This document shows, in pieces, positions 30,293 to 61,580 of a stretch of DNA of 64,000 nt. The notes beneath the pieces are model-generated. The model was not told the origin of the DNA and did not search any database. It worked only from the letters and a program-made list of their open reading frames with translations. How positions within the stretch are numbered: the first letter of the stretch is position 1; each line of letters begins with the position of its first letter. The position numbers were made by a program, and so were the translations under genes. The DNA is from an uncultured Candidatus Izemoplasmatales bacterium (lineage in GTDB: Bacteria > Bacillota_I > Bacilli_A > Izemoplasmatales > Hujiaoplasmataceae). The DNA lies in assembly GCA_964501315.1 (NCBI GenBank), contig CAZCSO010000004.1:24179-88178 (forward strand), given 5' to 3'.

Positions 30293-32925
30293 TTAATTTT
30301 TCCTCGAATCATTTGAATCGCTTCATCCACGTTTTCAATCGATTTTCCACCTGCTTGAGCATAATCGGGACGTCCGCCTCCGTTACCGCCGCACAGAATA
30401 GCCGCTGCTTTAACCAACTCGCCACAATGAAAAGATTTAGATAGTGACTTCGCTAAAAACATGACTTTATCATCCGTTACTGATGCGACAAAGACCAATC
30501 CATTGGGAACTCGAACAGCAATATTGTCAACCAATTGCTTGAGTTGAGCCATAGTGAGACCAGAAACCTTTTGGATGAAATGCCCTTCTTCAATTTGATC
30601 ATAAAACTGATCCATGGATGACTGAATTTGAAGTTCCTTGAGTTTGGATATTTCTTTTTCCAAGTCCTTAACCGATTTTTGCATATCGGTAAACAATTGA
30701 CGACGATTAATAACGTCCTGATAGGAACCGATGACACTCGGTAAGTCAGGATAACGATACGACACTTGAATGGCTTCATTCTCTGCTTGTTCAATCATGG
30801 ATTGAGCTTTATGGATTAAATTATCGATTTCTTGATTAATCCCGACAAGTCCATCTGCAATTGAATCAACCGACACATTGGTCAATCCTTCTATACGATA
30901 GATTCCAGAGCCAATCGAATAAAGGTTTTTAATGGCGAATCGTTGGATGTCTTTTAAGTCTTTGACATGCGTTCCACCACATAAATCTAACGTATACTTC
31001 AAATCCACAACACGGACGGAATCTCCGTATTTTTCGCCAAATTCAGCAATCGCGCCGTGTTTAACGGCTTCATCGACCGTCATAATCAGCGTTTTTGTTG
31101 GATAAGATTCGCTTATCATCTCATTGACGCGACGTTCCAACTCCAATATTTGTTCATCGGTAATCGATTCATAATGATTAAAATCAAAACGAAGCATATC
31201 CGACGATACTTGAGAACCCTGTTGAGAGACATGATTTCCTAATAAATCACGGAGAGCTTTAAATAACAAATGCGTAGCTGAATGATTGTAAGCAGTCAAA
31301 TTACGTCGTTGTTCGTCGACTTTCGCATTGACCCGCATGCCTTCTAATGGCATTCCATCCAACAATTCATAAACGTGTAAGAATTGACCGTTCGGTAATT
31401 TGTAGACATCCGTAACATGCGCAGAGAAACGATCGTTGTAGATAACGCCCGTATCGGCGAGTTGTCCTCCCGACGTAGCATAGAACGGCGTGTCTTCTAA
31501 AACCATGCCTTCGTCGAAAAGTTTGATAATTTTGGTTTCTGATAATAAGGATTGGTAACCGACAAAATGACTTTCTTCTTCAAAATTCAAGAAAGCTTCA
31601 TTTTGTGATTTCATGGATTGGATATCTTTGCGCGCTGACCGTGCCCGTTCTTTTTGTTTGGTCATTTCTTCATGGAATCCATCCAAGTCAACCTTCAAAT
31701 TACGTTCTTCTGCGTACTCTTGAGTTAATTCAATTGGAAAACCATAGGTATCGTAAAGAATAAAAGCATCCAAACCCGATAAGGTATTTGACGTAGTGTT
31801 TTGAGCAATGGTTTCAAATCGTTTTTCCCCGGAAGCCAACGTTTCCAAAAACTTAGTTTCTTCGGTAACGACGATTTTTTTAACGATGGCCTTTTGATCT
31901 TCTAAATAAGGATAAAAATCCTTCATATTATCGACGACAATGTCTACCAATTCATCCATAAACGGACGTTCAATTCCCAATTTACGGCCATATTTTACAG
32001 CGCGTCTCAACAATCTCCGAAGCACATATCCACGGCCTTCGTTAGCGAGGACAGCCCCGTCGGCAATGGCGAACGTCACGGTTCTAATGTGATCCGCAAT
32101 GACTTTAAATGCCATTTGTCCTTGGTATTCAACACCCGAGATCGATGAGATTCGTTGAATTATAGGCATGAATAAATCGGTCTCAAAATTAGTTTTGACA
32201 CCTTGAATAATGGAAGTTAAGCGTTCTAAACCGCAACCGGTATCGATGTTTTTATTGGGTAATTCCGGGTATTCAGATCGTGACAATCCTGGTTTTGCAT
32301 TGTATTGTGAGAACACGATATTCCAAAATTCGACATAACGATCGTTTTCAATGTCATCGCGAATCGCATCCGGTGTGAAATCACCGTATGCTTCGCCGCG
32401 GTCATAAAAGATTTCGGTACAAGGACCGCAGGGACCTTCTCCAATTTCCCAGAAATTGTTCTCTTCCGTTGGGATAATGTGTGAAGGATCTATACCCAGT
32501 TCAATCCACAAGTTTTTCGTTTCGATATCATCGGGATAGACGGTAATGTATAACCGATTCTTATCGAATCCAAGCCATTTCGGTGAGGTAATCAGTTCGT
32601 ATCCCCATGTAACGGCTTCTTTTCGGAAATAATCACCAATCGAAAAATTCCCCAACATCTCAAAGAACGTATGATGACGAGCTGTTTTTCCAACATTTTC
32701 AATGTCATTTGTACGAATGCATTTTTGAGCATTCACGATTCTTGGGTTTTTCGGAATCATTGAACCGTCAAAGTATTTTTTGAGTGCTGCAACACCGGCA
32801 TTCATCCACAATAACGTTGGATCATCATTGGGAATCAATGAAGCGCCTTTTTCAACACTGTGACCCTTCTCTTTGAAGAAATCCAGCCACATTTGACGAA
32901 TTTCGGTTCCTTTAAGATATTTCAT
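30289..32925 (-). CDS. alaS: alanine--tRNA ligase
   Basis: IRQMWLDFFKEKGH, FTNAGM-like WMNAGV, HHTFFEMLGNFS, HSATHLL editing block, C-terminal GGGRPDYAQAGG. The start at ATG 32925 follows GGAGGA. Confidence 0.97.
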   Translation of the reverse strand: MKYLKGTEIRQMWLDFFKEKGHSVEKGASLIPNDDPTLLWMNAGVAALKKYFDGSMIPKNPRIVNAQKCIRTNDIENVGKTARHHTFFEMLGNFSIGDYFRKEAVTWGYELITSPKWLGFDKNRLYITVYPDDIETKNLWIELGIDPSHIIPTEENNFWEIGEGPCGPCTEIFYDRGEAYGDFTPDAIRDDIENDRYVEFWNIVFSQYNAKPGLSRSEYPELPNKNIDTGCGLERLTSIIQGVKTNFETDLFMPIIQRISSISGVEYQGQMAFKVIADHIRTVTFAIADGAVLANEGRGYVLRRLLRRAVKYGRKLGIERPFMDELVDIVVDNMKDFYPYLEDQKAIVKKIVVTEETKFLETLASGEKRFETIAQNTTSNTLSGLDAFILYDTYGFPIELTQEYAEERNLKVDLDGFHEEMTKQKERARSARKDIQSMKSQNEAFLNFEEESHFVGYQSLLSETKIIKLFDEGMVLEDTPFYATSGGQLADTGVIYNDRFSAHVTDVYKLPNGQFLHVYELLDGMPLEGMRVNAKVDEQRRNLTAYNHSATHLLFKALRDLLGNHVSQQGSQVSSDMLRFDFNHYESITDEQILELERRVNEMISESYPTKTLIMTVDEAVKHGAIAEFGEKYGDSVRVVDLKYTLDLCGGTHVKDLKDIQRFAIKNLYSIGSGIYRIEGLTNVSVDSIADGLVGINQEIDNLIHKAQSMIEQAENEAIQVSYRYPDLPSVIGSYQDVINRRQLFTDMQKSVKDLEKEISKLKELQIQSSMDQFYDQIEEGHFIQKVSGLTMAQLKQLVDNIAVRVPNGLVFVASVTDDKVMFLAKSLSKSFHCGELVKAAAILCGGNGGGRPDYAQAGGKSIENVDEAIQMIRGKIK

Positions 32926-38574: not shown

Positions 38575-38688
38575 CAAAAAAAACGCTCGATTTAGAGCAG
38601 GCAAGATATCAACGATTTTAATTTCGTAGGTGTCCTGCCTCTCTTTTTTTATGATTTTAGTGTATAATTGATTAAAAAGGTGAACATT

Positions 38689-39213
38689 ATGAAAAAATTA
38701 TTAACTTTTGTATTAAGTCTGCTTTTAATATGCAGTTTATCAGGATGTGGTAAAAATGATGCCAATTCAATTGAGTCTAATAATCCTACTACTGAAGAAC
38801 CATCAATAACTACACCAATTGAAGATACTACACAAGAAACAAGTGAGAGTGATGAAATTATGAATAAAACATTAGTCCTTAAAATAGACAATACCGAAGT
38901 AGATGTATTTTGGGCTGATAACGCGTCAGTAACAGCTTTAAAGGAACTTGCTAAAGGTGGATTAACCATTAATATGAGTAAGTATGGTGGTTTCGAGCAA
39001 GTGGGTTCTTTAGGTACTTCAATTACATCAGCTGATACTAGAATTACAACAACTGCTGGTGACATTGTTTTATATTCATCAAATCAAATTGTTATATTTT
39101 ATGATTCAAATACATGGGCTTATACTAAACTTGGTCATATAAACTTATCTAAGAGTGAGCTAGTAGATCTACTTGCTGATGAAGATGTAACTATCACCTT
39201 ATCTTTAAAATAA
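38689..39213 (+). CDS. lipoprotein with a cyclophilin-like fold domain
   Basis: Signal peptide with lipobox LSGC. The C-terminal domain pattern (DNASVTALKEL...GDIVLYSSNQIVIFYDS...YTKLGHI) is typical of cyclophilin-like-2 proteins. The start at ATG 38689 follows AAAGGTGA. Confidence 0.7.
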   Translation: MKKLLTFVLSLLLICSLSGCGKNDANSIESNNPTTEEPSITTPIEDTTQETSESDEIMNKTLVLKIDNTEVDVFWADNASVTALKELAKGGLTINMSKYGGFEQVGSLGTSITSADTRITTTAGDIVLYSSNQIVIFYDSNTWAYTKLGHINLSKSELVDLLADEDVTITLSLK

Positions 39214-39240
39214 AAACACCACCAGATTACTCTAGTAGTG
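39205..39240 (-). terminator. rho-independent terminator of the recombinase operon
   Basis: On the minus strand, a 10-bp stem (39217-39226 / 39231-39240, two G-U pairs) is followed by TGTTTTTATTTT. Confidence 0.65.
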
Positions 39241-39274
39241 TTAGGAGGAAGTTCTGACTAAAAACAGAACTAAT

Positions 39275-41088
<1,814 letters not shown>

Positions 41089-41156
41089 ATAAATAACCTC
41101 CTTTGGTGTGTATATACATCACTCTAAAAGGGATTATTATCAAGTAATACGAGCAC

Positions 41157-41324
41157 TTATTTTTTATTCTTTAAAGGCATTTGAATGATTGGTATTTCAA
41201 TAGATCTACGAATCATCTTTTCAACCTTTTTCTTTATGTAATCTTCATCTTTTTTATCGGCGACTTGAGTATTTATAACATAGACAGTGTCACCGATTTT
41301 AGTATTATAATTTAATCTATCCAT
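41157..41324 (-). CDS. possible small ORF (55 aa), hypothetical
   Basis: Below the ORF-track cutoff. ATG 41324 is preceded by GGTGA. Translates MDRLNYNTKIGDTVYVINTQVADKKDEDYIKKKVEKMIRRSIEIPIIQMPLKNKK. It fills an otherwise empty 295-nt gap in a tightly packed operon. Confidence 0.35.
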   Translation of the reverse strand: MDRLNYNTKIGDTVYVINTQVADKKDEDYIKKKVEKMIRRSIEIPIIQMPLKNKK

Positions 41325-41383
41325 GCTATTCACCAAAAGGATAGGAGCTAACCTAGAAGCCCTAAATTAGCCCCTAAATCGCC

Positions 41384-42280
41384 TTAATTTTGATTGTTTT
41401 CTAGAGATTCAAGAATTAATACCTTACAAGCCTGTGCTTCGGTTAATTTGAAATCTAAGCGTTCTTTGGATGCATAACCTATATCGCCATTTTCTAGATA
41501 TAATTCCTTCAATACTTTAACTGCGATTCTTTCTCTTAAAAGGAAAGTAAGATAAGTGAAATTACCAAATAGAAGTGGCTTACTTGGATTTGTCATGTAA
41601 TTGGAAATAACGACCTTTTTGCCTAAGATGGTAGAATCAGCATTATTCCATAAATAATTACCTGAATCATCTTTTAACTTTCTTAATTTAAGTGCTGTTT
41701 CATCATTGGTAATAAAAATAGCTTCATCCCTATATTCCTTATCTAAAGAAAAGAATAAATCGATTACCGAATCATATGTGATTTCAGGAACTGATACACA
41801 GCCCAGATCATAATTTAACAAACCAAGTGGCTCTTTAACGCCTGTTCCATTAAGAATTAGCTTTTCTTCAGCTTTACCATATCTTTTAGATAAAGTCTTT
41901 CTTAAATAATCGGTCATATTGATTTTTAAATCATTGACAGTAGAACCTTTGACTTTAACGATTAAACCTAATTTATAAGATTTATATCTAAGTTCAGCCG
42001 TTGATTCATCTTCAACAAAGGCTTTATTATCTTCATCAACTACAACAGGTAAAGATGCAGAAGTGTTAATTGTTAATACGCCATCAGCTGTATCAGTTTC
42101 AACAAGATTCATGTATTTTCTAAATAAGTTATGTTTATCTAGAATCGATGCATCAATTGGAAGTTCAATATAGCCATCTGGTCTTAATTTCTCGATGTCG
42201 CCATAAACATCATCAGTAGGTTTTAATTTAAGTGCATTTTCTACGGCACTTGCGTATTTTGATAAGTAAATGTTATTCAT
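41384..42280 (-). CDS. HK97-fold phage major capsid protein family (short form, no delta/scaffold domain)
   Basis: AEEKLILNGTGVKEPLGLLN (capsid G.G..EP.G block), ILGKKVVISNYM, LLFGNFTYL, ERLDFKL. These match the Phage_capsid family pattern. Confidence 0.85.
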   Translation of the reverse strand: MNNIYLSKYASAVENALKLKPTDDVYGDIEKLRPDGYIELPIDASILDKHNLFRKYMNLVETDTADGVLTINTSASLPVVVDEDNKAFVEDESTAELRYKSYKLGLIVKVKGSTVNDLKINMTDYLRKTLSKRYGKAEEKLILNGTGVKEPLGLLNYDLGCVSVPEITYDSVIDLFFSLDKEYRDEAIFITNDETALKLRKLKDDSGNYLWNNADSTILGKKVVISNYMTNPSKPLLFGNFTYLTFLLRERIAVKVLKELYLENGDIGYASKERLDFKLTEAQACKVLILESLENNQN

Positions 42281-42300
42281 TTTTTTTAATCCTCCGTTTT

Positions 42301-42540
42301 TTAATATTTACCATTCTCAAATTTTTTTCTTACGTACTCTCTCGCTTCTTCATAAGTCTTAAAGAAGATAGTTGAACGGTTATAGCCAACCATAAAAGGC
42401 ATAGGTGTTATACGCTTGCTTTTAAATATGGTGATTTGGCCATAAATTCTATTAGGAAGTACAAATACACTTTTGTATTTTGAGTTTTCCAAATCGACTT
42501 TTTCAGGTAGGTCTAAACCTAAATAAACTTGATTAATCAT
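42301..42540 (-). CDS. hypothetical 79-aa protein
   Basis: ATG 42540 follows GGAGGA and overlaps the upstream stop by 8 nt (ATGATTAA). No recognisable motif. Confidence 0.55.
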   Translation of the reverse strand: MINQVYLGLDLPEKVDLENSKYKSVFVLPNRIYGQITIFKSKRITPMPFMVGYNRSTIFFKTYEEAREYVRKKFENGKY

Positions 42541-42805
42541 TTTTAATTCCTCCATTTTTGCATTGTTTATTCCAGTAGCTAATTCGGCAGCGGTCGCTAC
42601 AATATCTCTTGATTTTATGTCCCTTAATAACTTTTATCTCCATTCCACAATTAAGGCATTTGGTATATTTAGGAAGAGCTTCTTTATGTCTTCTAAAATA
42701 GGATTTAATTGTGTTATATGGAACTGAAGTTAAAAGAGAAATATCCATCATAGAATATCCATCAGCTCTTAAATTTTTAATTATTCTTTGTTCTTTATCA
42801 GTCAT
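42533..42805 (-). CDS. HTH (sigma-70 region 4 / LuxR-like) protein with a C-terminal Cys4 zinc ribbon
   Basis: The start at ATG 42805 follows GGAGGA. GYSMMDISLLTSVPYNTIKSYFRR is the HTH. Zinc ribbon: CLNC-x15-YCSDRC. Confidence 0.7.
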   Translation of the reverse strand: MTDKEQRIIKNLRADGYSMMDISLLTSVPYNTIKSYFRRHKEALPKYTKCLNCGMEIKVIKGHKIKRYCSDRCRISYWNKQCKNGGIKND

Positions 42806-42943
42806 ATAAATTTCCTCCTTTTTATCTTTAAACGAATTGGGTAATATACCCCCTTTGAAAACGCGAATATGCACACGAGACCCCTGGCCGGTGTCTAGAT
42901 TAATAGCACCAGAGATTTGATGGGGCCCAGGTCATATTAATTT

Positions 42944-43058
42944 TGTCCTTTATGTCCTTTTGTCCTTATATAGAAAGAAATCTTCAATAAAAACATCTAT
43001 AAAATAAATAAATTAATTAATATTTTGTATATATAGGGACAATGTGACAAAAGGGACA
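42944..43058. repeat. iteron cluster flanking an AT-rich spacer: putative replication origin of the island
   Basis: TGTCCTT occurs three times (42944, 42953, 42961). An AT-rich stretch of about 67 bp follows. Then AGGGACA occurs twice in inverted orientation (43035, 43052). The cluster lies immediately 3' of the replicase gene stop at 43065. Confidence 0.55.
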
Positions 43059-43064
43059 ATATTC

Positions 43065-45341
43065 TTAACTTGAATCAATGGTGTAAATGCTAGGATTAAT
43101 AAGGTAGCTTTGACCTTTTGGTCTACCAATATTAGTTTGATTAGATTCGCATTCTTTTAAATAACCATAATCACATAATAGATTTAATGCAGGTATTACT
43201 TCATCTTTAGTCTTAAATGACCTAACAAGCCTCATAACATCACGAGCTGTAATATTATCTTTATGTGGCGTTTGTTTAATTAAAGAATCAATAATCTTTT
43301 TGGCATTTTTCTTAGTGGTATCAAGGCCTAACATATCAAAGGCATATAAAGCATGATCTAAAAAATAATCTCCTACCTTAATGGCATCCAACATTGTTTT
43401 CTTTTGGACTATGTAATTACCATCAACAAGCGGTGTTCCATCATTTAAAAACGGGTCATACTTAATTCCAAAGGCTCTAGTTAATAGTCCTGATATTCTT
43501 AAGATATTACCAACTAGTTTGCCTGCCCAAGCACCAATATCCTTAAGGTCGTTTTTAAGCCTAAATTCAAAATTATCATGATATCTTTCAAGTTCTTTAT
43601 AGGCATCATCAGTAAGTGAGATTGTATCCATAAAGGTTGTATCTTCATTTAATATTAAATTAATAAGAGAATAGAAAGCTTGTTTAGTATCTTCGCTTAT
43701 TACATCTGTAGTAAGTTTTCTAGAACCTACCATTGATTTAGGAATCGAATAAAGAAATCTTGCATTAAGTCCTCTACCACTAAATATTGGATTATTAAGT
43801 ATCGTTTCAAGTACTCTTGGTTGAACCATTAGTAGGATTGTGAGTTTTGGCTTTTTAAGTGAAATTGACTCACGACCGATTCTATCAACCCTTACATAAT
43901 CTCCTGAATAGCCTTTAAGCAGAATATCGATATTAACTACCTTAGAATAAGCACCAGATAGAACATCAAATATACCACCCTCACTAGATATAATGGATAG
44001 TGATTCATCTTGTTCCTTTAACTTATTAGCTAGAACTTCAGGTGTTACATCATCAGCTGTTAAAACTAATTTATGTAGCCTTTTAAAACCATTTATTTTA
44101 GTTATCACTTCATCGAGTTCTGATGTAGTTGCTTTACCTTTTTCAACATCTTTAACTAGTTTATTTCGCTTTGTAATAAGTGCTTGATATTCTAGTTCGG
44201 ACTTTTCTCGTTCTAGTGAATGAGCTTCGTTATAATTAATTTCAAATGTATGTATTACTTTTATCATTTGGTTAATTACAGCTGATTTTCTTTCACTAGG
44301 TTCTGCAACTACCATCGCATATAAGTTAAGTGGTTCATCCCAGTCGGATTTACCTTGAATTTGATACTTTCTTTGCATTGATAAAGCTAAAACTGATAAT
44401 GCGATTACACCTGCCATATCTATTGGTGTTTGTGTAGCTTCACTAACTGCTAAACAATAATTTTTAATAGCATCAGGAAAAACATCAATTGGAAATGGTA
44501 AGAGTGGTCTTTCATTAAGTGGAATAAGCGAATCCCATTTAATATCTTCCTTTTGGTTATATTCATCTGGTTTAATGTAATTAGGACTATTTACAATCTT
44601 TGTTTTATAGAATTTAGTAGCACTAGACCATATGAGTTTAAGTTCTGCATTATCTAGGGGTGGCATGCACCTTTCACTTACCTTTAAAAATTCATTATAA
44701 GCATCAGCTGTATCGCCATATCTTTTAATAATTTTTGAAGCTTCTTTAGATAATGTAGAATTGCGACTGCCCTCAAGTATTGGAGCATCTTGCATTAGGA
44801 AATTTTCAGATTCTTTGTTCCATATAAATTCAGACAATGTTTTATCTCCTTCAACTAGTTCAACTTGTGGGTTAGATGTTCCAAAGAAGAATCTAGCTGA
44901 ATCAAGTGCATTATTATCTATAAAAGGAAAATAGTTATAGACCTTTTGTTTTAAAGATGAATATTTAGCTTCATCCGTTATTTCATCTATTGGAAACAAA
45001 ACATGGAACTTAGGCCTAGCCTTTTTACCATTTTTAGATATTAGATGATGTCTTGAATATTGAACATAAAATCCAACTTCAGGAAATGCCTTTTTTACAT
45101 CTTCAACATAAATCCAATTAGATGAATCTTCAGCATGGTCATTATCAATATCAACAGGTAAGCAATCCGCCTTAATAAAGTTTTTAATGCTTCTAATATT
45201 ATCCTTATAGGTAGCACATACATAATCTAGTGTTATTGCCTTACTAAATGATTCAATATTATTAACTATAACTTTATTGTCATATCTGATATTTTGTGGT
45301 AATCCTCTAACATTTGATTTATAGATTGTTATTGATTTCAT
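43065..45341 (-). CDS. replication protein: N-terminal primase-polymerase (prim-pol) domain fused to a DUF3987-type helicase-like domain
   Basis: CLPVDIDND is the DxD motif and RPKFHVLFP the His motif of prim-pol. NLYAMVVAEPSERKSAVINQM resembles the DUF3987 P-loop region. The start at ATG 45341 follows GGAGGT. Confidence 0.7.
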   Translation of the reverse strand: MKSITIYKSNVRGLPQNIRYDNKVIVNNIESFSKAITLDYVCATYKDNIRSIKNFIKADCLPVDIDNDHAEDSSNWIYVEDVKKAFPEVGFYVQYSRHHLISKNGKKARPKFHVLFPIDEITDEAKYSSLKQKVYNYFPFIDNNALDSARFFFGTSNPQVELVEGDKTLSEFIWNKESENFLMQDAPILEGSRNSTLSKEASKIIKRYGDTADAYNEFLKVSERCMPPLDNAELKLIWSSATKFYKTKIVNSPNYIKPDEYNQKEDIKWDSLIPLNERPLLPFPIDVFPDAIKNYCLAVSEATQTPIDMAGVIALSVLALSMQRKYQIQGKSDWDEPLNLYAMVVAEPSERKSAVINQMIKVIHTFEINYNEAHSLEREKSELEYQALITKRNKLVKDVEKGKATTSELDEVITKINGFKRLHKLVLTADDVTPEVLANKLKEQDESLSIISSEGGIFDVLSGAYSKVVNIDILLKGYSGDYVRVDRIGRESISLKKPKLTILLMVQPRVLETILNNPIFSGRGLNARFLYSIPKSMVGSRKLTTDVISEDTKQAFYSLINLILNEDTTFMDTISLTDDAYKELERYHDNFEFRLKNDLKDIGAWAGKLVGNILRISGLLTRAFGIKYDPFLNDGTPLVDGNYIVQKKTMLDAIKVGDYFLDHALYAFDMLGLDTTKKNAKKIIDSLIKQTPHKDNITARDVMRLVRSFKTKDEVIPALNLLCDYGYLKECESNQTNIGRPKGQSYLINPSIYTIDSS

Positions 45342-45519
45342 CAGCCTTACCTCCACTAGACTCCTTTAGCCATTTCTTATATTCATCAATAGGAATAATG
45401 ATTCTTGAACCAATTCTTATAGATGGAAAATTTGGACTTTTAATTAACTCATAAGCCTTAGGAATCGAAATGCCTAATTGGATAGCAAGTTCGTGTACTG
45501 TCATTGTAGTTTTTTCCAT
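45319..45519 (-). CDS. excisionase/MerR-type helix-turn-helix DNA-binding protein
   Basis: MTVHELAIQLGISIPKAYELIKSPNFPSIRIGSRIIIPIDEYKKWL is the classic excisionase-family HTH. The start at ATG 45519 follows GGAGGT. Confidence 0.8.
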   Translation of the reverse strand: MEKTTMTVHELAIQLGISIPKAYELIKSPNFPSIRIGSRIIIPIDEYKKWLKESSGGKADEINNNL

Positions 45520-45657
45520 TTCAGTTACCTCCATATTTGTTGATACACAACAGGCAGATGATCTACTCAATTTATTTGAACCATCCTTATCAAGTAATTG
45601 AGTTAAACCTGATAGCGAATTTATTTAATCTAATTCAAATAAAATCAATCCAATCTC

Positions 45658-45727
45658 TTGTGTTCGATGTCATTTTACTATATAATGTAATCGAAAACTA
45701 ACTTCGGTTGATTACAAGTCGATTACA
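45658..45727 (+). promoter_or_regulatory. promoter of the 375-aa gene with three GATTACA-type operator boxes
   Basis: TTGTGT (45658-45663), 17-nt spacer, TATAAT (45681-45686). Boxes are TGTAATCG (45686-45693, inverted), TGATTACA (45709-45716) and CGATTACA (45720-45727). Confidence 0.5.
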
Positions 45728-45750
45728 TCAAAAAGGATGGTTTTTAGTAT

Positions 45751-46878
45751 ATGAGAAATCACTACAAAAAAGAAAAATCCTTCGCTCAAGTGTTTAAGGA
45801 AGGATTCGGATTTACCGAGATAGGTGGTATAGCAGATACTGCTTATAGACTCGTTAGATATGATGATTATATGTTTGAAGATGGTGTAACTATTGAAAAA
45901 TATAATCTAATAAATGAAGACATGATTGTGAATAAGAATCCACTTTCTATGCCTACTTTAGATGATGATAATACAATTACAGGAAAGAAATTACTTATAT
46001 CATTATTAAAGCTTGCGGATGACATAGATAAGAATTGTAAAACTAAATATGAAACAGTTGATAAGATTATTGAATGGTGTAAAAAAGTAGCTCATCCATA
46101 TGACATAAACAAGCTTTATGAAAAATATGAAGCAGACCTTTTAGGTATAGAGCCTGATATTCCAATCGATTTAGTATATGATGGTTCTTTTAAATATTAT
46201 GATTTTATGCAAGATCTATGTGACTTATATGATGTAGTTATCAACTGGCATGCGTTTTCTGAATTAATTAGAGGTAATGTTGATTATGCTTACAATTTAA
46301 ATGATAGTGGCCCATCTTTTATAAATGGTTCTATATATGAAAAATATAAGAGAGTAAAAAACGATAGGGGGATTAACCTTACACGTGAAGATAGGCAAAA
46401 TTGGATAAAGGATAATTATACGGGTGACTTCATTGAAACTCTCATAAAGGAAAGAGAAGCTCATAACATTTATGGAGATTTATTATCTAAAGAAACTTTT
46501 AGAAAGAACGTATTAAAAGATAAAAAGAAAATATATTCAAGAATCATTTCATATATACCACCTGTAAGAATGAAACTTAAATATATTGATAATGAAGGTA
46601 ATGCTGAATTTAGAGCTGAGATTAATTCGGTGTTCGATATTTGTTGGTATACCTTAGCAAGAATGATAGCTTCTAATGCTCCACAACAAGATGAAGATTT
46701 AGATTATGGTGGAGATAGATGGAATGAAGGAACATTAGGTGTATGTGCTAATTGTGGTACATTCTTCCTTAAGAATAATAGTGTTCAAAAGTATTGTGAT
46801 AATGCATCATGCAAGGCAGCTAGAATCAGAAATAATGTAAGGTCACTTAGAGAACGTAGAAAGAATAATCAAGAATAA
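45751..46878 (+). CDS. hypothetical 375-aa protein with a C-terminal Cys4 zinc ribbon and basic tail
   Basis: Divergent from the xis/replicase operon. CANC-x13-YCDNASC followed by ARIRNNVRSLRERRKN (from nt 46744). The rest has no recognisable motif. Confidence 0.6.
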   Translation: MRNHYKKEKSFAQVFKEGFGFTEIGGIADTAYRLVRYDDYMFEDGVTIEKYNLINEDMIVNKNPLSMPTLDDDNTITGKKLLISLLKLADDIDKNCKTKYETVDKIIEWCKKVAHPYDINKLYEKYEADLLGIEPDIPIDLVYDGSFKYYDFMQDLCDLYDVVINWHAFSELIRGNVDYAYNLNDSGPSFINGSIYEKYKRVKNDRGINLTREDRQNWIKDNYTGDFIETLIKEREAHNIYGDLLSKETFRKNVLKDKKKIYSRIISYIPPVRMKLKYIDNEGNAEFRAEINSVFDICWYTLARMIASNAPQQDEDLDYGGDRWNEGTLGVCANCGTFFLKNNSVQKYCDNASCKAARIRNNVRSLRERRKNNQE

Positions 46879-46997
46879 CTATAATTCGATTCAATATAAA
46901 ATAAAAATTACAATATATTAATCTAATGAGTAAAAATGATATATTTATACAAACTTTGAGAAATAACAAAAAAACTATGCGAAATCGTAGTAAACCC

Positions 46998-47026
46998 TTG
47001 AGTTCTAAAAGTAAAAATGGTATAAT
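46998..47026 (+). promoter_or_regulatory. promoter of the HTH-methyltransferase operon
   Basis: TTGAGT (46998-47003), 17-nt spacer, TATAAT (47021-47026) with TGG (extended -10). The imperfect palindrome ACTATGCGAAATCGTAGT lies just upstream. Confidence 0.55.
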
Positions 47027-47047
47027 TATGATATCTAGGAGGACATT

Positions 47048-47257
47048 ATGGCACTATCATATAATAAACTATGGAAACTTCTTATTGATAAGGGGTTAAA
47101 GAAAACTGATTTGAATAAATTAACTGGAATTAGCGATTCAACTATGGCTAAATTAACGAAAGGCGAAAACATTAATACAGAAATTTTAGAAAGAATATGC
47201 AAAGCATTAAATTGTCAAATTTCTGATATAGTTGAATATGTTTCGGAGGACAAATAA
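47048..47257 (+). CDS. small Cro/C1 (XRE)-type HTH transcriptional regulator
   Basis: 69 aa. KKTDLNKLTGISDSTMAKLTKGENINTEILERICKALNCQISDIVEY. RBS AGGAGG. Confidence 0.85.
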   Translation: MALSYNKLWKLLIDKGLKKTDLNKLTGISDSTMAKLTKGENINTEILERICKALNCQISDIVEYVSEDK

Positions 47258-47259
47258 AT

Positions 47260-48480
47260 ATGATTAAACAATCAATGAATACTCATCTAACTCGTGAAGA
47301 AATAATTAAAAGTGGAAGTGTGTATACTGGTCCTGAGTTAGTTAATTTGGTTTATAGTCAAGTGAATTCGTTTATTGATAAAAACACAGTTATTGGTGAT
47401 TTTGGCTCAGGATATGGAGCCTTTATAGAAAGATTTAAAAACGAAGGAAAAAGATGCTTTGGAACAGAACACGATGATTTATCATTCGAATTACTTAAAT
47501 CCGAATATCCTGATATAGATGTATATCATGAAAACTCATTATTAAATGTTAATAGAGAAAAATACAATTTATTAGAAAATGATAAGTTAATTATTGTGGG
47601 AAATCCACCTTATAATGATACAACTAGTATTTTTAAAAAAGGTGAAAAAGGTGAATTGGTTTGTGATTCTGATATTATTTCAAGAGACTTTGGTATATCT
47701 TTTTTGAAGGCATATAACAAGCTAAATGCAGAATATGTATGTATACTACATCCCTTAGCCTATTTAATAAAAAAACAGAACTTTAATTCTCTAGGGGATT
47801 TTAAAAACAATTATAAATTAATTTCAGCAACAGTTTTTTCAAGTAAAGAATTTGAAAGCATTAAGAAGTCTAATTCAGATTTCCCAGTCGTTTCTGCATT
47901 ATATAAAAGAGATAAAACAGGTATGAATTATGAATATGTTCAAAATTTTAAATTTAGAATTTTTAAAGGTTCTGGCTTATTTGTCTTAAGTAATATCATA
48001 ACTATTGATGGATATATCGGAAAATATCCAACGAGTCATAAAACTAAGGCAACAAAATATGAGTATAATCTTTTTGGTGAAAAGCAAAAGAGCGATGACT
48101 TAAGTTCTCGTCTTCAATTCTATACCTTAAGAGATATGAATGCTTTATTAAGAAATGCTGGGTTCGTAGAAGGTATAATTCCTAATGGGATTGATGTTTC
48201 GCTTGAAAACCTTTATCAATATTCCTGGTTATATTTTCTTAAGAGCAATTTTAATCCAAAAGATTACAAGTTTTTATATGGTAATCTATCTCCATTATAT
48301 ACTAACAAAATTGAAGATGACTCATTTAAAGCTTGTGTTGTTTGGTACGCATATAACAATTCAGAATTAGTTCAAAAATATATGGACGAAGAAAAAATAA
48401 AAGCATTATACGGACCTAAAACAGATCAATATAATGCATTATTTGAAGAATTAAACAATTTGTACAATATATTTAAATAG
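47260..48480 (+). CDS. gamma-class N6-adenine DNA methyltransferase (TaqI/Eco57I-like)
   Basis: Motif X SVYTGPELVNLV, motif I VIGDFGSGYGAF, motif IV IIVGNPPYN, in that order. The C-terminal half has no motifs and is presumably the target-recognition domain. The ATG lies 2 nt after the HTH stop. Confidence 0.85.
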   Translation: MIKQSMNTHLTREEIIKSGSVYTGPELVNLVYSQVNSFIDKNTVIGDFGSGYGAFIERFKNEGKRCFGTEHDDLSFELLKSEYPDIDVYHENSLLNVNREKYNLLENDKLIIVGNPPYNDTTSIFKKGEKGELVCDSDIISRDFGISFLKAYNKLNAEYVCILHPLAYLIKKQNFNSLGDFKNNYKLISATVFSSKEFESIKKSNSDFPVVSALYKRDKTGMNYEYVQNFKFRIFKGSGLFVLSNIITIDGYIGKYPTSHKTKATKYEYNLFGEKQKSDDLSSRLQFYTLRDMNALLRNAGFVEGIIPNGIDVSLENLYQYSWLYFLKSNFNPKDYKFLYGNLSPLYTNKIEDDSFKACVVWYAYNNSELVQKYMDEEKIKALYGPKTDQYNALFEELNNLYNIFK

Positions 48481-48506
48481 TATGAATATAATAATTATTA
48501 AAATGA

Positions 48507-49271
48507 TTAAAATGCATTTTTAACAATTACATTTAAAATTTCTAAAACATCATGATTATGTGCTGTCGAGCACATGCCAAAGCAAATTAATAAATCAAAA
48601 ACAACAGATTTCATATTTTCATCGAATGTAATGATTCCGTTAGGAGTTTCTGCAGATGTGTGATTGATAATTTTATTTGCATTATCAAAAGCATTGACTG
48701 GGATTATTAAGTATAGCATAGGTTGAACACCAGTTGCATATTGTTGCTTTTGAATCATAATTTCAATTAAAAGTTTAGAATCTCTTGGTTGAGTAATGAA
48801 AGTGGGAAGTTTGGTTGAAGAAGATAAAAACTTAATATTATTTAATGTGACAGAATCTTCTTTTTTTACTTCTATTGAATACTTATCTTGTAAAAAAGTT
48901 TTAATAGAAGCAATTTTGTTACAAACATCAAGTATTTCTTTTTTAGAAATAATATTATTTTTGCACATAAAGTAAGTAATCTCTGATAATTCATATGGAT
49001 GCTTACTTTTTTTATTTGCTCCAATAAAAACAAACTCGTCAGAATTCAATCTTGTTTCTTTTTCGTCTTTTCCAATTATCGTATCATATCCAATTTGCCA
49101 TTCAAGATAAGAATTGTTAGTTATAATTGTTGATTTTGGTGCAAATCCATTTCCAAATTCTTGAATATCATTTCTTGTTTTACATCTAAATTTACCTTGA
49201 CTAGTTAAAGGTAAGTTAACAACAACATTATTATTTTTTATTTCATAATTCATCTCTGGTGTTTTTGCCAT
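48507..49271 (-). CDS. hypothetical 254-aa protein (second gene of the ORFan pair; candidate nuclease/effector by context only)
   Basis: The ATG lies 1 nt after the upstream stop, with GGGAGGA inside the upstream gene. The only motif hint is a weak D115-x18-E134-V-K136. Confidence 0.6.
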   Translation of the reverse strand: MAKTPEMNYEIKNNNVVVNLPLTSQGKFRCKTRNDIQEFGNGFAPKSTIITNNSYLEWQIGYDTIIGKDEKETRLNSDEFVFIGANKKSKHPYELSEITYFMCKNNIISKKEILDVCNKIASIKTFLQDKYSIEVKKEDSVTLNNIKFLSSSTKLPTFITQPRDSKLLIEIMIQKQQYATGVQPMLYLIIPVNAFDNANKIINHTSAETPNGIITFDENMKSVVFDLLICFGMCSTAHNHDVLEILNVIVKNAF

Positions 49272-49272
49272 T

Positions 49273-49875
49273 TTATAATTCCTCCCATTTTAAAGTGTTA
49301 ATTAAAAAATCTTTTGTTCGTTCGTAATCATAGCTTTCCATTTTAGAAACTATTTCAATCATGCAATTATGCATTGGCATAAGGTCGAAATATCTTCCAC
49401 TATTTATAAAATAAGGACTATTTCGATATGCTTTTAGCTTATCTTCCGTTCCATAAATAATGCCAGTTTGTGCATTAATCATCATTGTGATTTTTAGCTT
49501 TTTAGTGTCTAAGTAAATGTTTTTATCATCATTTCTATTTGAAATACCATAATCTAATGGTGTTCCTCCGTGTGTTCCAAGAGTCATTTGTCCCTGAACT
49601 AATCCTTCAACAAATCTTCTTTGTTCATATGAACTAGAAGCTTTATAACCAAGCTTATTAACTTGTTCTTGAAATGGTTGTTTTTCTAGCCCAGAAGAAA
49701 AATTACTTATTCCGTTTAAAGTTTCAACATCGTGAATTAAAATCATTATGTCTTGACATTCCTCAAAAGAAAGACTTAATAATCCATTTGAAATTCTTGA
49801 GTCATGTAAATCAATTATTAATGAAATATATCTTGAAGAAAACTTTCCGCTCCTAGTAAATTTCCAAAAAAACAT
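49273..49875 (-). CDS. hypothetical 200-aa protein (first gene of the ORFan pair)
   Basis: ATG 49875 is preceded by AAAGGA. The ORF-track start at 49905 is a TTG extension. No recognisable motif. An extended -10 promoter TGATATAAT lies upstream on the minus strand, near 49939-49947. Confidence 0.6.
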   Translation of the reverse strand: MFFWKFTRSGKFSSRYISLIIDLHDSRISNGLLSLSFEECQDIMILIHDVETLNGISNFSSGLEKQPFQEQVNKLGYKASSSYEQRRFVEGLVQGQMTLGTHGGTPLDYGISNRNDDKNIYLDTKKLKITMMINAQTGIIYGTEDKLKAYRNSPYFINSGRYFDLMPMHNCMIEIVSKMESYDYERTKDFLINTLKWEEL

Positions 49876-49945
49876 ACATGTTATCCTTTCTATAAATTTT
49901 ATCAAAATGCTAAGTATGTATTGATATGACTCTATAATTATATCA

Positions 49946-50028
49946 TTTTTTTCTCAAAATTACTATTTTACGACTCTTTATTTAAGCTAAAAAAACATTT
50001 TTTCTCAAATTATTGAGGAAGTGACTCT
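49946..50028. repeat. two degenerate direct repeats of about 50 bp at the right edge of the island
   Basis: TTTTTTCTCAAAATTACT...GACTCT (49946-49977) and TTTTTTCTCAAATTATT...GACTCT (49998-50028). A third GACTCT is at 49928-49933. Confidence 0.6.
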
Positions 50029-50059
50029 AAAGAATCAATGAAAATAATCATATGGAGAC

Positions 50060-50091
50060 ATAAAAAACTGCCTAGATTTTACTCTAGACAG
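50060..50091 (-). terminator. rho-independent terminator of the TVP38-family gene
   Basis: On the minus strand, a 9-bp stem (50068-50076 / 50083-50091, one G-U pair) is followed by TTTTTTATGT. Confidence 0.7.
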
Positions 50092-50145
50092 TTATCGTTC
50101 ATATGTTGTGTGCTCATTTGAGCGTAATTTTTTTATTACTGTTTT

Positions 50146-60183: not shown

Positions 60184-61499
60184 CGTTCATCACCTGATTC
60201 TTCTACAGCATCTCCAATGAGGTCGAGTCCATGTGCCGCTTTAATTTCCACGGTAACAATATCCCCGACCATCAAGGTTTTTGTTGATTGAAAAACAATG
60301 TACCCGTCGATATCATCGGGTGCGAATGCATAACTTCTTCCGTAATAGAATAACGATTGCGGATCATAATCTTCAATAATTGTTCGATGTCGTGTATGAA
60401 TCTGTTTTTTGTTTTTACGATAAGCGATTTTTTGTTGAAGATTCATAAGTTGATCCAGTCGCTCGAGTTTGATTGATTCTTCGATTTGATCTGGCATATC
60501 AAAAGCAGGCGTATCCTCTTCCTTTGAATATGCGAATGCACCTAACCGATCAAATTCCATTTCCTTCACAAATTCAATCAGTTCCTGAAAATCCTCTTCG
60601 GTCTCACCAGGGAACCCAACAATCATTGTGGTTCTTAAAATCGCTTGTGGAATATGCTCTCTAATCTTCGTAAGCAAGGATTGATAGTCTTGTTTGCTTC
60701 CACGCCGATTCATTCGCTTCAATACAGCGTTGGAGACGTGTTGCAATGGAATGTCAAAATAGGGACAAATCTTCGGATTTTGTTTTATCTCGAAAATCAA
60801 TTCATCCGTGATTTCATCGGGGTAAAGATACAAAATACGAACCATTTCCAACCCATTTAGTTGACTGATGTCGCGAAGTAATTGTGGCAACATTGATTCA
60901 TGATTAACGGTAACGTCATAACCAAATCGGGTCGTGTCTTGACTGATTAAGTTGATTTCTTTCGCACCATTTTGAACAAGAAGTGAAGCTTCATCCAAAA
61001 CCTCTTGGTAATCTCGACTGCGAAAACGTCCCCGAATCAGAGGAATTGCACAGTAAGTACACCGATTATCACAGCCATCAGAAAGTTTTAAATAGGGAGT
61101 TCGATGAGATGTAGCCAATAACCGATGGTGATAATTGATGGGACCAAACGTCAATGAGTCATCCTTCATCACACTTTGAACGATATTACCAAATAACGGA
61201 TAATCTTTTAACGTTACCACTTTATCGACAAACGGCATTTCTTGTTCTAATTTTTTTTGATATCGTTGAGCATAACATCCTGTTACAATCAACTTTTTAT
61301 GATAGCCAGCCATTTCTTTAATGGTAGCGATGGTTTCTTTCTTAGCTTCTTCAATGAACCCACATGTATTGATAATGATTAGATCGGCTTCTTCAGGATT
61401 GGGTACGATTTCAGCCCCACCATTTTCAAGCATCCCTAATATCATTTCAGAATCGATTAGATTTTTAGAACATCCCAGTGATACTAATCCAATTTTCAT
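60174..61499 (-). CDS. rimO: ribosomal protein S12 methylthiotransferase RimO (radical SAM MTTase)
   Basis: MKIGLVSLGCSKNLIDSE, radical SAM cluster CDNRCTYC, C-terminal TRAM. The start at ATG 61499 follows AGAGG. The ORF-track start at 61577 is an extension. Confidence 0.88.
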   Translation of the reverse strand: MKIGLVSLGCSKNLIDSEMILGMLENGGAEIVPNPEEADLIIINTCGFIEEAKKETIATIKEMAGYHKKLIVTGCYAQRYQKKLEQEMPFVDKVVTLKDYPLFGNIVQSVMKDDSLTFGPINYHHRLLATSHRTPYLKLSDGCDNRCTYCAIPLIRGRFRSRDYQEVLDEASLLVQNGAKEINLISQDTTRFGYDVTVNHESMLPQLLRDISQLNGLEMVRILYLYPDEITDELIFEIKQNPKICPYFDIPLQHVSNAVLKRMNRRGSKQDYQSLLTKIREHIPQAILRTTMIVGFPGETEEDFQELIEFVKEMEFDRLGAFAYSKEEDTPAFDMPDQIEESIKLERLDQLMNLQQKIAYRKNKKQIHTRHRTIIEDYDPQSLFYYGRSYAFAPDDIDGYIVFQSTKTLMVGDIVTVEIKAAHGLDLIGDAVEESGDERCF

Positions 61500-61580
61500 G
61501 CAATACCTCTTCATAATACGACTATCTCTATTATACGATGAAATGACCAAAAGACAAAAAGAAAAGAGGATTTTCATCCT

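Follow-up and report, generated by a model that had tools for sequence, protein, structure and literature searches.

The stretch of DNA considered here, 64,000 nucleotides of contig CAZCSO010000004.1 (assembly GCA_964501315.1) from an uncultured Candidatus Izemoplasmatales bacterium and hereafter called the window, holds an integrative element of 11,513 bp (38599..50111, minus strand; below, the island), within which lies a gene for an HK97-fold major capsid protein (MCP) of 298 amino acids (aa) that has no delta domain (41384..42280, minus strand). An earlier note on this DNA had spoken of a serine-recombinase island, and the island is real: its limits follow from an empty site in a contig from another sample (L097), in which both flanks are 99.3-99.7% identical and the GAPDH-VTT genes are directly followed by PadR-HAAS-DUF4097. 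The GC content is 29.6% in the island vs 38.7% in the rest of the window. The alignment with the empty site overlaps by 14 bp at each junction, with the attL core at 38585..38598 (host CGCTCGATTT / island AGAGC..., crossover at TT) and the attR core at 50112..50125 (island ...GTGCTCATTT / host GAGCGTAATTTTTTT). Read in the orientation of the element, the island begins with an open reading frame (ORF) of 210 aa, an R.Pab1-like enzyme, a type II methyltransferase, a C-protein, a gene of 375 aa and an HTH_17 protein, and continues with a DUF3987 primase-helicase, the small proteins p113 and p84, the MCP, a TnpW-like protein, p67, a large serine recombinase and a cyclophilin-like protein; from p113 to the recombinase the genes overlap or are tightly packed. 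Among these 14 ORFs, searches of Pfam and PHROG matched no portal, protease, scaffold or terminase gene and no small terminase subunit (terS), tail or lysis gene; no scaffold-like gene lies beside the MCP gene according to the same searches and a model of p84, and relaxase families gave no match in Pfam, PHROG or NCBIfam.

The capsid gene has an ATG start with a GGAGG Shine-Dalgarno sequence 9 nt upstream, and the four motifs by which the earlier note had assigned its product to the HK97 family are present in the translation. The assignment is borne out by profile searches: the protein matches Pfam PF05065, Phage_capsid (E=3.9e-42, 145 bits against a cut-off of 24.2, profile positions 21-278 of 280), which is its sole Pfam match, the PHROG_10 major head protein (E=9e-38) and NCBIfam TIGR01554, major_cap_HK97 (E=7.6e-46, 157 bits against a cut-off of 27.5). 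A search of PDB entries with the MCP sequence alone led to the capsid of the gene transfer agent (GTA) RcGTA and to the head protein of EcCI2, a capsid-forming phage-inducible chromosomal island (cf-PICI). An AlphaFold2 model built from 28 homologues (predicted local distance difference test score 83.8, predicted template modelling score 0.81) takes up the HK97 fold, and Foldseek aligns it over nearly its full length with HK97-fold capsids in the PDB (E=1e-17 to 1e-11, 245-290 aligned columns), including the RcGTA capsid (E=1e-17) and those of phage Mycofy1, cf-PICI EcCI2 (9gyi), HK97 and SaPI1, as well as the procapsid of the satellite SaPIbov5 with its capsid protein homologue Ccm (7rwz).

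The absence of a delta domain, also proposed in the earlier note, is seen in several ways. The match to TIGR01554 covers only profile positions 135-383 of 385 and leaves positions 1-134 unmatched, and the N-terminal coiled-coil of roughly 90-130 aa found in phage relatives has no counterpart in the island protein; in two relatives of ~400 aa (P0048 and P0053) this coiled-coil spans ~90 aa. The Pfam capsid domain of the protein at phage locus L032 begins only at residue 130 of 405, and the island MCP has only a few residues ahead of the conserved Y..(F)WNA(M)R motif, which in the phage protein comes after the delta domain. The further suggestion that the protein begins directly at the P-domain/A-domain core did not hold, as the model contains an N-arm helix (residues 2-17), an E-loop region and a spine helix (122-144) in addition to the P and A domains. 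With these elements kept and the delta domain absent, the MCP looks, in the model, like a mature, already-cleaved phage MCP. An HK97 fold without a delta domain, a size similar to that of encapsulins and an N-terminal helix are also what an encapsulin-like nanocompartment shell around a cargo enzyme would have, and family 3 encapsulins do fall within PF05065. All of the best 50 Foldseek matches in the PDB are nevertheless phage, GTA or satellite capsids, with no encapsulin among them; the closest relatives outside the family are phage MCPs encoded beside portal and protease genes, the gene is always found within a mobile element with variable restriction-modification (R-M) cargo, and its conserved neighbours are primases, small DNA-binding proteins and integrases, with no conserved cargo candidate. 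On this gene context and these structural neighbours the encapsulin reading of the earlier note was rejected, and we regard it as highly improbable.

Homologues of the island MCP in databases are 295-310 aa long throughout, from 93% down to ~33% identity, and all 39 members of its 90% cluster have exactly 298 aa. An exhaustive HMMER search returned 57 cluster representatives at E of at most 1e-30, of which 53 were counted: 44 are 280-345 aa long and four at least 370 aa. Among the best 150 matches, the short class makes up at least 74 clusters at 50% identity. In a collection of viral contigs the lengths of the MCP ORFs are bimodal, with ~300-317 aa on small contigs vs ~397-405 aa on phage-sized contigs, and the two classes differ sharply in their surroundings. 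When all proteins neighbouring 21 short-MCP and 13 long-MCP loci were clustered and their identities confirmed by Pfam, a serine recombinase was found near 17 of the 21 short-MCP genes and a primase-helicase near 16, vs none of the 13 long-MCP genes in either case; conversely, the large terminase subunit (TerL) accompanied 13, a portal 12 and a ClpP-type protease 10 of the 13 long-MCP genes and not one of the 21 short ones. In species-representative genomes, ~55 of 62 loci have the island core, and phages account for only two. The recurring module consists of the divergent gene of ~375 aa, a primase-helicase (of DUF3987 or D5/DUF5906 type), small ORFs, the short MCP and a serine or tyrosine integrase, and it occurs at species-level loci in Lachnospiraceae, Oscillospiraceae, Christensenellales, Anaerovibrio and Pyramidobacter, several cultured isolates included. 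Carriers in culture include Anaerobium acetethylicum GluBS11, Blautia sp. Marseille-P3201T, Lachnospira intestinalis CLA-AA-H89B and Anaeromassilibacillus senegalensis An867. A megaplasmid of cultured Bacillus badius (NBPM-293, pPM400 island) carries a version annotated as type III R-M, helix-turn-helix (HTH), 'P4-family primase', a 299-aa 'phage major capsid protein', 'TnpW' and 'recombinase'. In the contexts of six diverse homologues the module is constant and the cargo differs; examples are PvuII R-M, type III R-M, an Eco57I-like enzyme, a GmrSD-like nuclease and a D12 methylase together with an HNH_2 nuclease. Members have one or two serine recombinases, and L013 has a tyrosine integrase and the classical order of a phage-inducible chromosomal island (PICI), namely int, cI-like repressor, primase, small ORFs and MCP. 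The earlier note had held a capsid gene to be unusual for a serine-recombinase island; the delta-less MCP is in fact a defining core gene of a large island family.

Two side observations concern this family. Tandem large serine recombinases (~430-490 and ~530 aa) are present in many islands (L006-L012, L028, L029, L135 and L154), and these pairs, which also occur in the Heliusvirales-type phage discussed below, are reminiscent of ccrA/ccrB of staphylococcal cassette chromosome elements. Islands or fragments of them have also been deposited as phage contigs (L017-L057 in IMG/VR, MT838964.1, and BFVD A0A8S5QZ78) under labels such as 'Bacteriophage sp.' and 'Siphoviridae sp.', probably owing to their capsid and primase genes.

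In a simple neighbour-joining distance tree of 107 MCP cores, the island MCPs all fall to one side, and opposite them 49 of the 54 long MCPs form a single pure clade. Some 'long' ORFs (~360-430 aa) within the island clade were considered as delta-bearing members, but their extra length was an artefact of calling start codons too permissively upstream; each of the four apparent exceptions in the tree contains a Met immediately ahead of the Y..(F)WNA(M)R motif. Judged from the sequences, the delta domain is absent in every island MCP and present in the phage relatives, and the clean split in the tree suggests, as an indication only, that the delta-less lineage arose once, long ago, and not by repeated decay. 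This bears on the view that the island is a degraded remnant of a Heliusvirales-like prophage with an MCP that is now functionless. Descent by reduction is suggested by the primase, MCP, recombinase and small genes held in common with phages in a like order. The frameshifts or decay across homologues that the earlier note associated with a pseudogene are, however, not seen in most members: the ratio of nonsynonymous to synonymous substitution rates (dN/dS) of the MCP is 0.12-0.25 in pairwise comparisons at unsaturated distances, similar to the values for the recombinase, the primase-helicase and p84 given below, the length of the MCP stays within 295-317 aa over dozens of 50%-identity clusters, the compact architecture is kept in ~55 species, current mobility is shown by an intact empty site and by insertions at several sites, and many independent decays are unlikely given the split between island and phage MCPs. 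A remnant was rejected on the dN/dS values, the uniform length and the kept architecture, and a functionless leftover of this kind is scarcely credible. The MCP is an intact, selected core gene of a widespread island family in gut Bacillota.

Modules are exchanged among these islands. The window shares a primase 98% identical with L001, where the MCPs are 75% identical; with L185 it is the MCP that is 98% identical and the primase 70%, and with L004 the recombinase is 95% and the MCP 47% identical. By these comparisons the primase, MCP and recombinase modules are mosaic and shuffled between islands. The independent swapping of the MCP module is what would be expected if it were matched to particular helper phages, and fits a role in transfer and one in interference alike.

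The MCP of the window is identical to a protein of a metagenome-assembled genome of Acholeplasmatales, and the closest deposited phages are 'Ca. Heliusvirales' gut phages of 50-65 kb, whose delta-bearing MCPs are ~35% identical to it. One of them, PV036447.1, is the Anaeroplasmataceae phage NatCom_34063, a host assignment that is the depositors' prediction. Its genes run from a ParB-like nuclease through a p67 homologue, an amidoligase, TerL, portal and ClpP to an MCP of ~400 aa, and it also has a 753-aa primase and, at its end, two tandem large serine recombinases (60216-63081). Six protein genes of the island are held in common with this phage at 24-67% identity: HTH_26 (67%), p67 (59%), the primase domain (51%), p113 (37%), the MCP (35%) and the recombinase, which is 24-26% identical to both phage recombinases. 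The relative order of primase, MCP and recombinase is also alike, and these homologies make the island look like a reduced, specialised relative of Heliusvirales-type phages drawing on a common gene pool. The proteins of a complete related phage match the 64-kb window inside the island only, and the earlier note's statement that portal, protease, scaffold and terminase are missing stands. Its proposal that the closest capsids be traced to phages of this host is answered in part, since phages of the Heliusvirales type were found, one of them predicted on Anaeroplasmataceae, but no such prophage resides in the window. Satellites go unmentioned in the paper in which Heliusvirales is defined (PMC11283538).

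Directly upstream of the MCP gene lies a conserved small ORF, p84 (42301..42555, minus strand; 'small3'), which BLAST clustering placed in 13 of the 21 island loci and which recurs in 129 database clusters; at ~85 aa it stands between primase and MCP in most islands, and its dN/dS is 0.15-0.32. Its model has four beta-strands and one C-terminal helix. Pfam, PHROG, PDB sequences and a fold search of the PDB gave no match to p84, and its best viral fold match is an uncharacterised protein of 80 aa; it is perhaps a partner dedicated to the delta-less MCP. Next comes p113 (42533..42874, minus strand), with an HTH and a C-terminal zinc ribbon (phrog_2308, E=7e-15), whose phage homologue (37% identity, PV036447.1 59595-59837) lies beside the phage recombinases, and which is possibly a regulator or directionality factor. 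On the other side, directly 3' of the MCP stop codon, a 16-bp stem-loop resembling a terminator or attenuator (41342..41376, minus strand; free energy -22.6 kcal/mol, z -3.0) is nearly identical in L001, L004, L098, L182 and L185, islands whose MCPs are only 46-75% identical. A common packaging site was considered for this hairpin and dropped when it was found in neither the related phage nor the Clostridia-type islands; this absence makes it likelier that it is a terminator or attenuator, which probably separates expression of the MCP from that of the recombinase genes.

The primase-MCP-recombinase operon is headed by an HTH_17 protein of AlpA/excisionase/MerR type (45319..45570, minus strand; E=7.5e-5 and 23.3 bits, under the cut-off of 27; phrog_66 excisionase/regulator, E=1.9e-8), followed by the primase-helicase (43065..45356, minus strand; Pfam DUF3987, E=2.4e-84, and PHROG helicase and primase families). 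The latter combines an N-terminal primase domain with a DUF3987 helicase, has a dN/dS of 0.06-0.24 and is 51% identical to the phage primase over residues 9-273. The AT-rich intergenic region 3' of its gene (42875..43064) contains palindromes (inverted repeats I2 and I6) and is, by analogy, a candidate replication origin; PICI origins have an analogous position (PMC6092414), and a search of the region for iterons found none. Beyond the MCP hairpin follow the TnpW-like protein of 59 aa (41157..41336, minus strand; Pfam TnpW, E=0.0012, under the curated cut-off), the equivalent of which is annotated as TnpW family in the Bacillus badius island, and p67 (40885..41088, minus strand), a 67-aa protein common to Heliusvirales-type phages. 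The phage counterpart of p67 in PV036447.1 lies at 32351-32551, the 59% match spanning 32354-32542, homologues with 55-64% identity occur in the phage loci L188-L190 (L188 5550-5834), and in these phages the gene is always found between the ParB-like nuclease and terminase genes; p67 may have a role in late-gene control or packaging. The large serine recombinase (39275..40885, minus strand) is of the TnpX/TndX type, with the Pfam domains Resolvase, Recombinase, Zn_ribbon_recom and DUF4368 and a dN/dS of 0.05-0.16.

At the recombinase end, still inside the island limits, lies a gene for a cyclophilin-like (Cyclophil_like2) lipoprotein with a signal peptide and lipobox (38668..39213, plus strand; Pfam PF18050, E=2.7e-20), for which surface exclusion is one possibility. 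It adjoins the serine recombinase in L001-L004 and L182-L186, and was seen at this end in every island of the Acholeplasmatales/Bacilli type observed. At the opposite side of the operon, p375 (45751..46878, plus strand; cluster 25), a divergent core gene with a C-terminal CxxC...C..C zinc ribbon, recurs at this place in many islands, whichever of the two integrase types they have; Pfam, PHROG, NCBIfam and the PDB gave no informative match, and by its position, that of a master regulator analogous to Stl, it is a candidate regulator. The variable cargo slot beyond it (47048..49905; Pfam, PADLOC) here holds a C-protein (HTH_26), a type II methyltransferase (PADLOC MTase_II, E=5.5e-44), an R.Pab1-like restriction endonuclease (REase_II, E=3e-9) and the uncharacterised 210-aa ORF (49273-49905). 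Two 20-nt direct repeats, likely C-boxes, precede the R-M cargo at 46929-47029, and the phage protein to which the C-protein is 67% identical is encoded by the first gene of the Heliusvirales phage, there too beside a methyltransferase. A scan against Rfam gave no match.

Between the VTT and PadR genes stands an intrinsic-terminator hairpin, into the loop of which the island was inserted (attB ...AACGCTCGATTT/TGAGCGTAATTTTTTT, the slash marking the join), and the reconstructed attP, TGCTCATTT/AGAGCA, is an imperfect palindrome. The left end of the island was also found in 13 metagenome contigs (L192-L204), which add at least eight further flanks, the join always following TT; with the site in the window there are at least nine distinct flanks, all at TT, and the others mostly resemble halves of terminators, with an A-tract and a GC-stem, and the attP half-site. 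These many TT-joined flanks indicate a multi-site, transposon-like recombinase, which seems to use terminator palindromes as its targets. Multi-site insertion at a fixed dinucleotide, into targets that resemble the ends of the element, is the behaviour of TnpX and TndX and matches the DUF4368 architecture. The empty site, the att sites and the several insertion sites show that the island is recently or currently mobile. Two paralogous islands (L182 and L185), ~40 kb apart on a 414-kb contig (ERZ28018865 k141_751236), have MCP alleles that are 85% identical and different cargo, DpnII R-M with AbiU2-like and DUF2971 genes in one and type III R-M in the other.

An integrase, a replicase of its own, a cargo slot and a lone capsid gene, with no other gene for virions, lysis or conjugation, are most economically explained by a phage satellite. 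The island has several traits of such elements: its length lies within their range of about 7-20 kb, it has att sites, an integrase and its own primase, and it carries a gene suited to hijacking without other structural or lysis genes; the cargo slot of these islands contains defence genes, mostly R-M, as in known satellites. We therefore consider it on balance probable that it is a phage-satellite-like element whose MCP co-assembles with the capsid proteins of a helper phage, as Ccm does. The small T=4 capsids of SaPIbov5 contain no satellite protein other than Ccm, which occupies the pentamers; Ccm forms no capsids alone and blocks the phi12 helper (PMC8569155). MCP homologues are also encoded by PmCI172 and EcCICFT073 (PMC6092414), and PICI-like tycheposons carry terS or an MCP gene, some of them the MCP only (10.1101/2020.12.28.424599). 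Of the readings put forward in the earlier note, the best supported, by genomic inference only, is that of a satellite subunit relying on the portal, protease and tails of a helper.

Under this satellite reading, the element would excise and replicate when a helper phage of the Heliusvirales type replicates in the cell, and the MCP would be expressed from the tight p113-p84-MCP unit that ends in the strong hairpin. Alone, the delta-less MCP would assemble inefficiently; it would instead co-assemble with the delta-bearing MCP of the helper on the helper portal. In the absence of a delta domain the island MCP itself would need no proteolytic processing, and its scaffolding would probably be supplied by the helper subunits. 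Assembly would thereby be biased toward capsids that suit the small element, much as with Ccm of SaPIbov5, and the helper would supply packaging, tails and lysis, the outcome being mobilisation of the island and a lowered yield of the helper.

Several points weigh against this account. HK97 gp5 is not known to assemble without its delta domain, so that co-assembly of a delta-less subunit is an assumption, and Ccm keeps a cleavable delta domain, which leaves the mechanistic analogy incomplete. The island lacks terS, and its integration module is like that of the mobilisable transposons Tn4451/Tn5397, which makes transfer routes other than a capsid conceivable. The MCP of the candidate helper is only ~35% identical to that of the island, and the host of that phage rests on the depositor's prediction. 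No helper prophage was found within the 64-kb window or the retrieved flanks, nor beside the paired L182/L185 islands, and L123 adjoins an unrelated phage. A comparison with the single complete candidate phage, PV036447.1, found no common non-coding DNA of the cos or pac kind. Among 51 full-length small contigs there were no circular or terminally redundant forms, and the predicted attP junction (...GTGTGCTCATTT/AGAGCAGGCAAG...) was not found in assembled metagenome and viral contigs; L199 has an attP-like junction, but the 1.2 kb upstream of it has no similarity to the island. Excision, replication and encapsidation of the island are thus inferred from genomics.

Some of the same observations would suit a role in interference only, in which the delta-less MCP, as a dominant-negative subunit, would enter or cap the procapsid lattice when related phages come in, block productive assembly and so shield the host population, and with it the island, but have no part in transfer of the island. 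A subunit without the scaffolding delta domain could plausibly poison assembly, the cargo of the islands is otherwise of the defence kind, neither terS nor a packaging signal was found (Pfam, PHROG and the comparison with PV036447.1), an encapsidated form was not detected among small contigs or as an attP junction in assemblies, and Ccm itself blocks reproduction of its helper (PMC8569155). Yet the MCP belongs to the conserved primase-to-integrase operon of every member, with any type of integrase or primase, and lies outside the variable slot in which the defence genes are kept, which counts against a pure defence role; no PADLOC model matches it, and for the sole structural gene of an island with no relaxase or other visible transfer function a role in transfer is the economical one. 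The decoy function raised in the earlier note thus has a precedent in Ccm, which does both jobs, and is set back by the place of the gene; as the only function of the MCP we consider it unlikely.

The MCP, with or without p84, might also self-assemble into small shells, with portal, terminase and tails taken from the helper, as in a reduced form of the cf-PICIs. Some HK97-fold proteins that have neither delta domain nor scaffold, the encapsulins, do self-assemble. The fold of the island protein is complete (N-arm, E-loop, P and A domains), the conserved p84 accompanies it, and the strong Shine-Dalgarno sequence and terminal hairpin suggest high expression. Against this, p84 is a small beta-sheet protein and not a coiled-coil scaffold, Ccm makes no capsids by itself (PMC8569155), and cf-PICIs require their own portal, protease, connectors and terminase subunits (PMC10085698), none of which is in the island. 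Self-assembly of this kind is therefore improbable, and co-assembly with helper subunits remains the preferred reading.

Satellites with an MCP homologue are a kind already known, and the closest parallel is the pair SaPIbov5/phi12: there too a small satellite without terS, portal and protease carries a single HK97-fold homologue of the helper MCP (PMC8569155). Identity is 24% between Ccm and the phi12 capsid protein and ~35% between the island MCP and the MCP of the candidate phage. The two differ in that Ccm has 355 aa with a delta domain of 87 residues (1-87) that is cleaved in assembly (PMC8569155), whereas the MCPs of the island family have none; the pathogenicity islands of Staphylococcus aureus (SaPIs) employ tyrosine integrases and fixed att sites, whereas the island has a TnpX/TndX-like serine recombinase and many TT targets; and the host of the island is a gut Acholeplasmatales bacterium. 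PmCI172, EcCICFT073 and the tycheposons are likewise small islands with integrase, regulator, primase and an MCP as sole or main morphogenesis gene, and the L013-type members have the PICI gene order; these elements belong to Proteobacteria and Cyanobacteria and have other integrases, and the parts of the sources at hand do not report a delta-less MCP. The cf-PICIs (EcCI2/EcCIEDL933) also encode an HK97 capsid protein, that of EcCI2 being a top structural and sequence match, but carry capsid, portal, protease, head-tail adaptor, connector, terS and terL genes (PMC10085698) where the island has the MCP only.

With Tn4451/Tn5397 the island has in common a large serine recombinase with DUF4368, a small TnpW-like ORF and multi-site insertion at a fixed dinucleotide. 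Those elements carry a Mob/relaxase (TnpZ), whereas the island has no relaxase match, a primase-helicase and a capsid gene instead, and TT as its crossover; an oriT was not detected either, although no search was aimed at it. A possible lead to Tn6215 yielded nothing relevant in the literature. Heliusvirales phages, finally, have the homologous MCP, primase domain, p67, p113, HTH_26 and serine recombinases, and the same predicted host order, but are complete phages of 50-65 kb with TerL, portal, ClpP, tail and lysis genes and a delta-bearing MCP of ~400 aa.

In the literature found, in which subscription journals are thinly covered so that an earlier description is possible, the island family is undescribed; the same holds for its universally delta-less MCP with a small partner, its TnpX-like terminator-targeting recombinase or alternative integrases, its spread across Bacillota and its tie to Heliusvirales-type phages. 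Taken together, these features might mark the islands as a large and so far undescribed satellite family that depends on Ca. Heliusvirales-type phages, a lineage among the most widespread in the human gut, in which family a 'pre-matured' MCP and p84 would enter the helper lattice with no need for the helper protease, a new mode of capsid piracy combined with a transposon-like recombinase that targets terminator hairpins and a swappable defence slot; this fuller picture is put forward only tentatively. Current satellite finders are keyed to terS, full head modules or markers of P4 and PICI-like elements (PLE) and would probably leave the island family unclassified. Annotation as 'phage major capsid protein' and deposition of some islands in viral databases inflate the counts of prophages and viruses. 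A subunit that is born 'mature', without a delta domain, would also be a natural experiment on the acceptance of foreign subunits in HK97-type lattices and on the setting of capsid size. If the satellite reading is true, Bacillota of the gut and elsewhere harbour an entire family of such satellites, spanning Lachnospiraceae, Oscillospiraceae, Christensenellales, Acholeplasmatales and Bacillus, and the major gut phage order Heliusvirales would be tied to dedicated parasites that carry R-M and other defence cargo, with a bearing on gut phage-host dynamics and on horizontal transfer.

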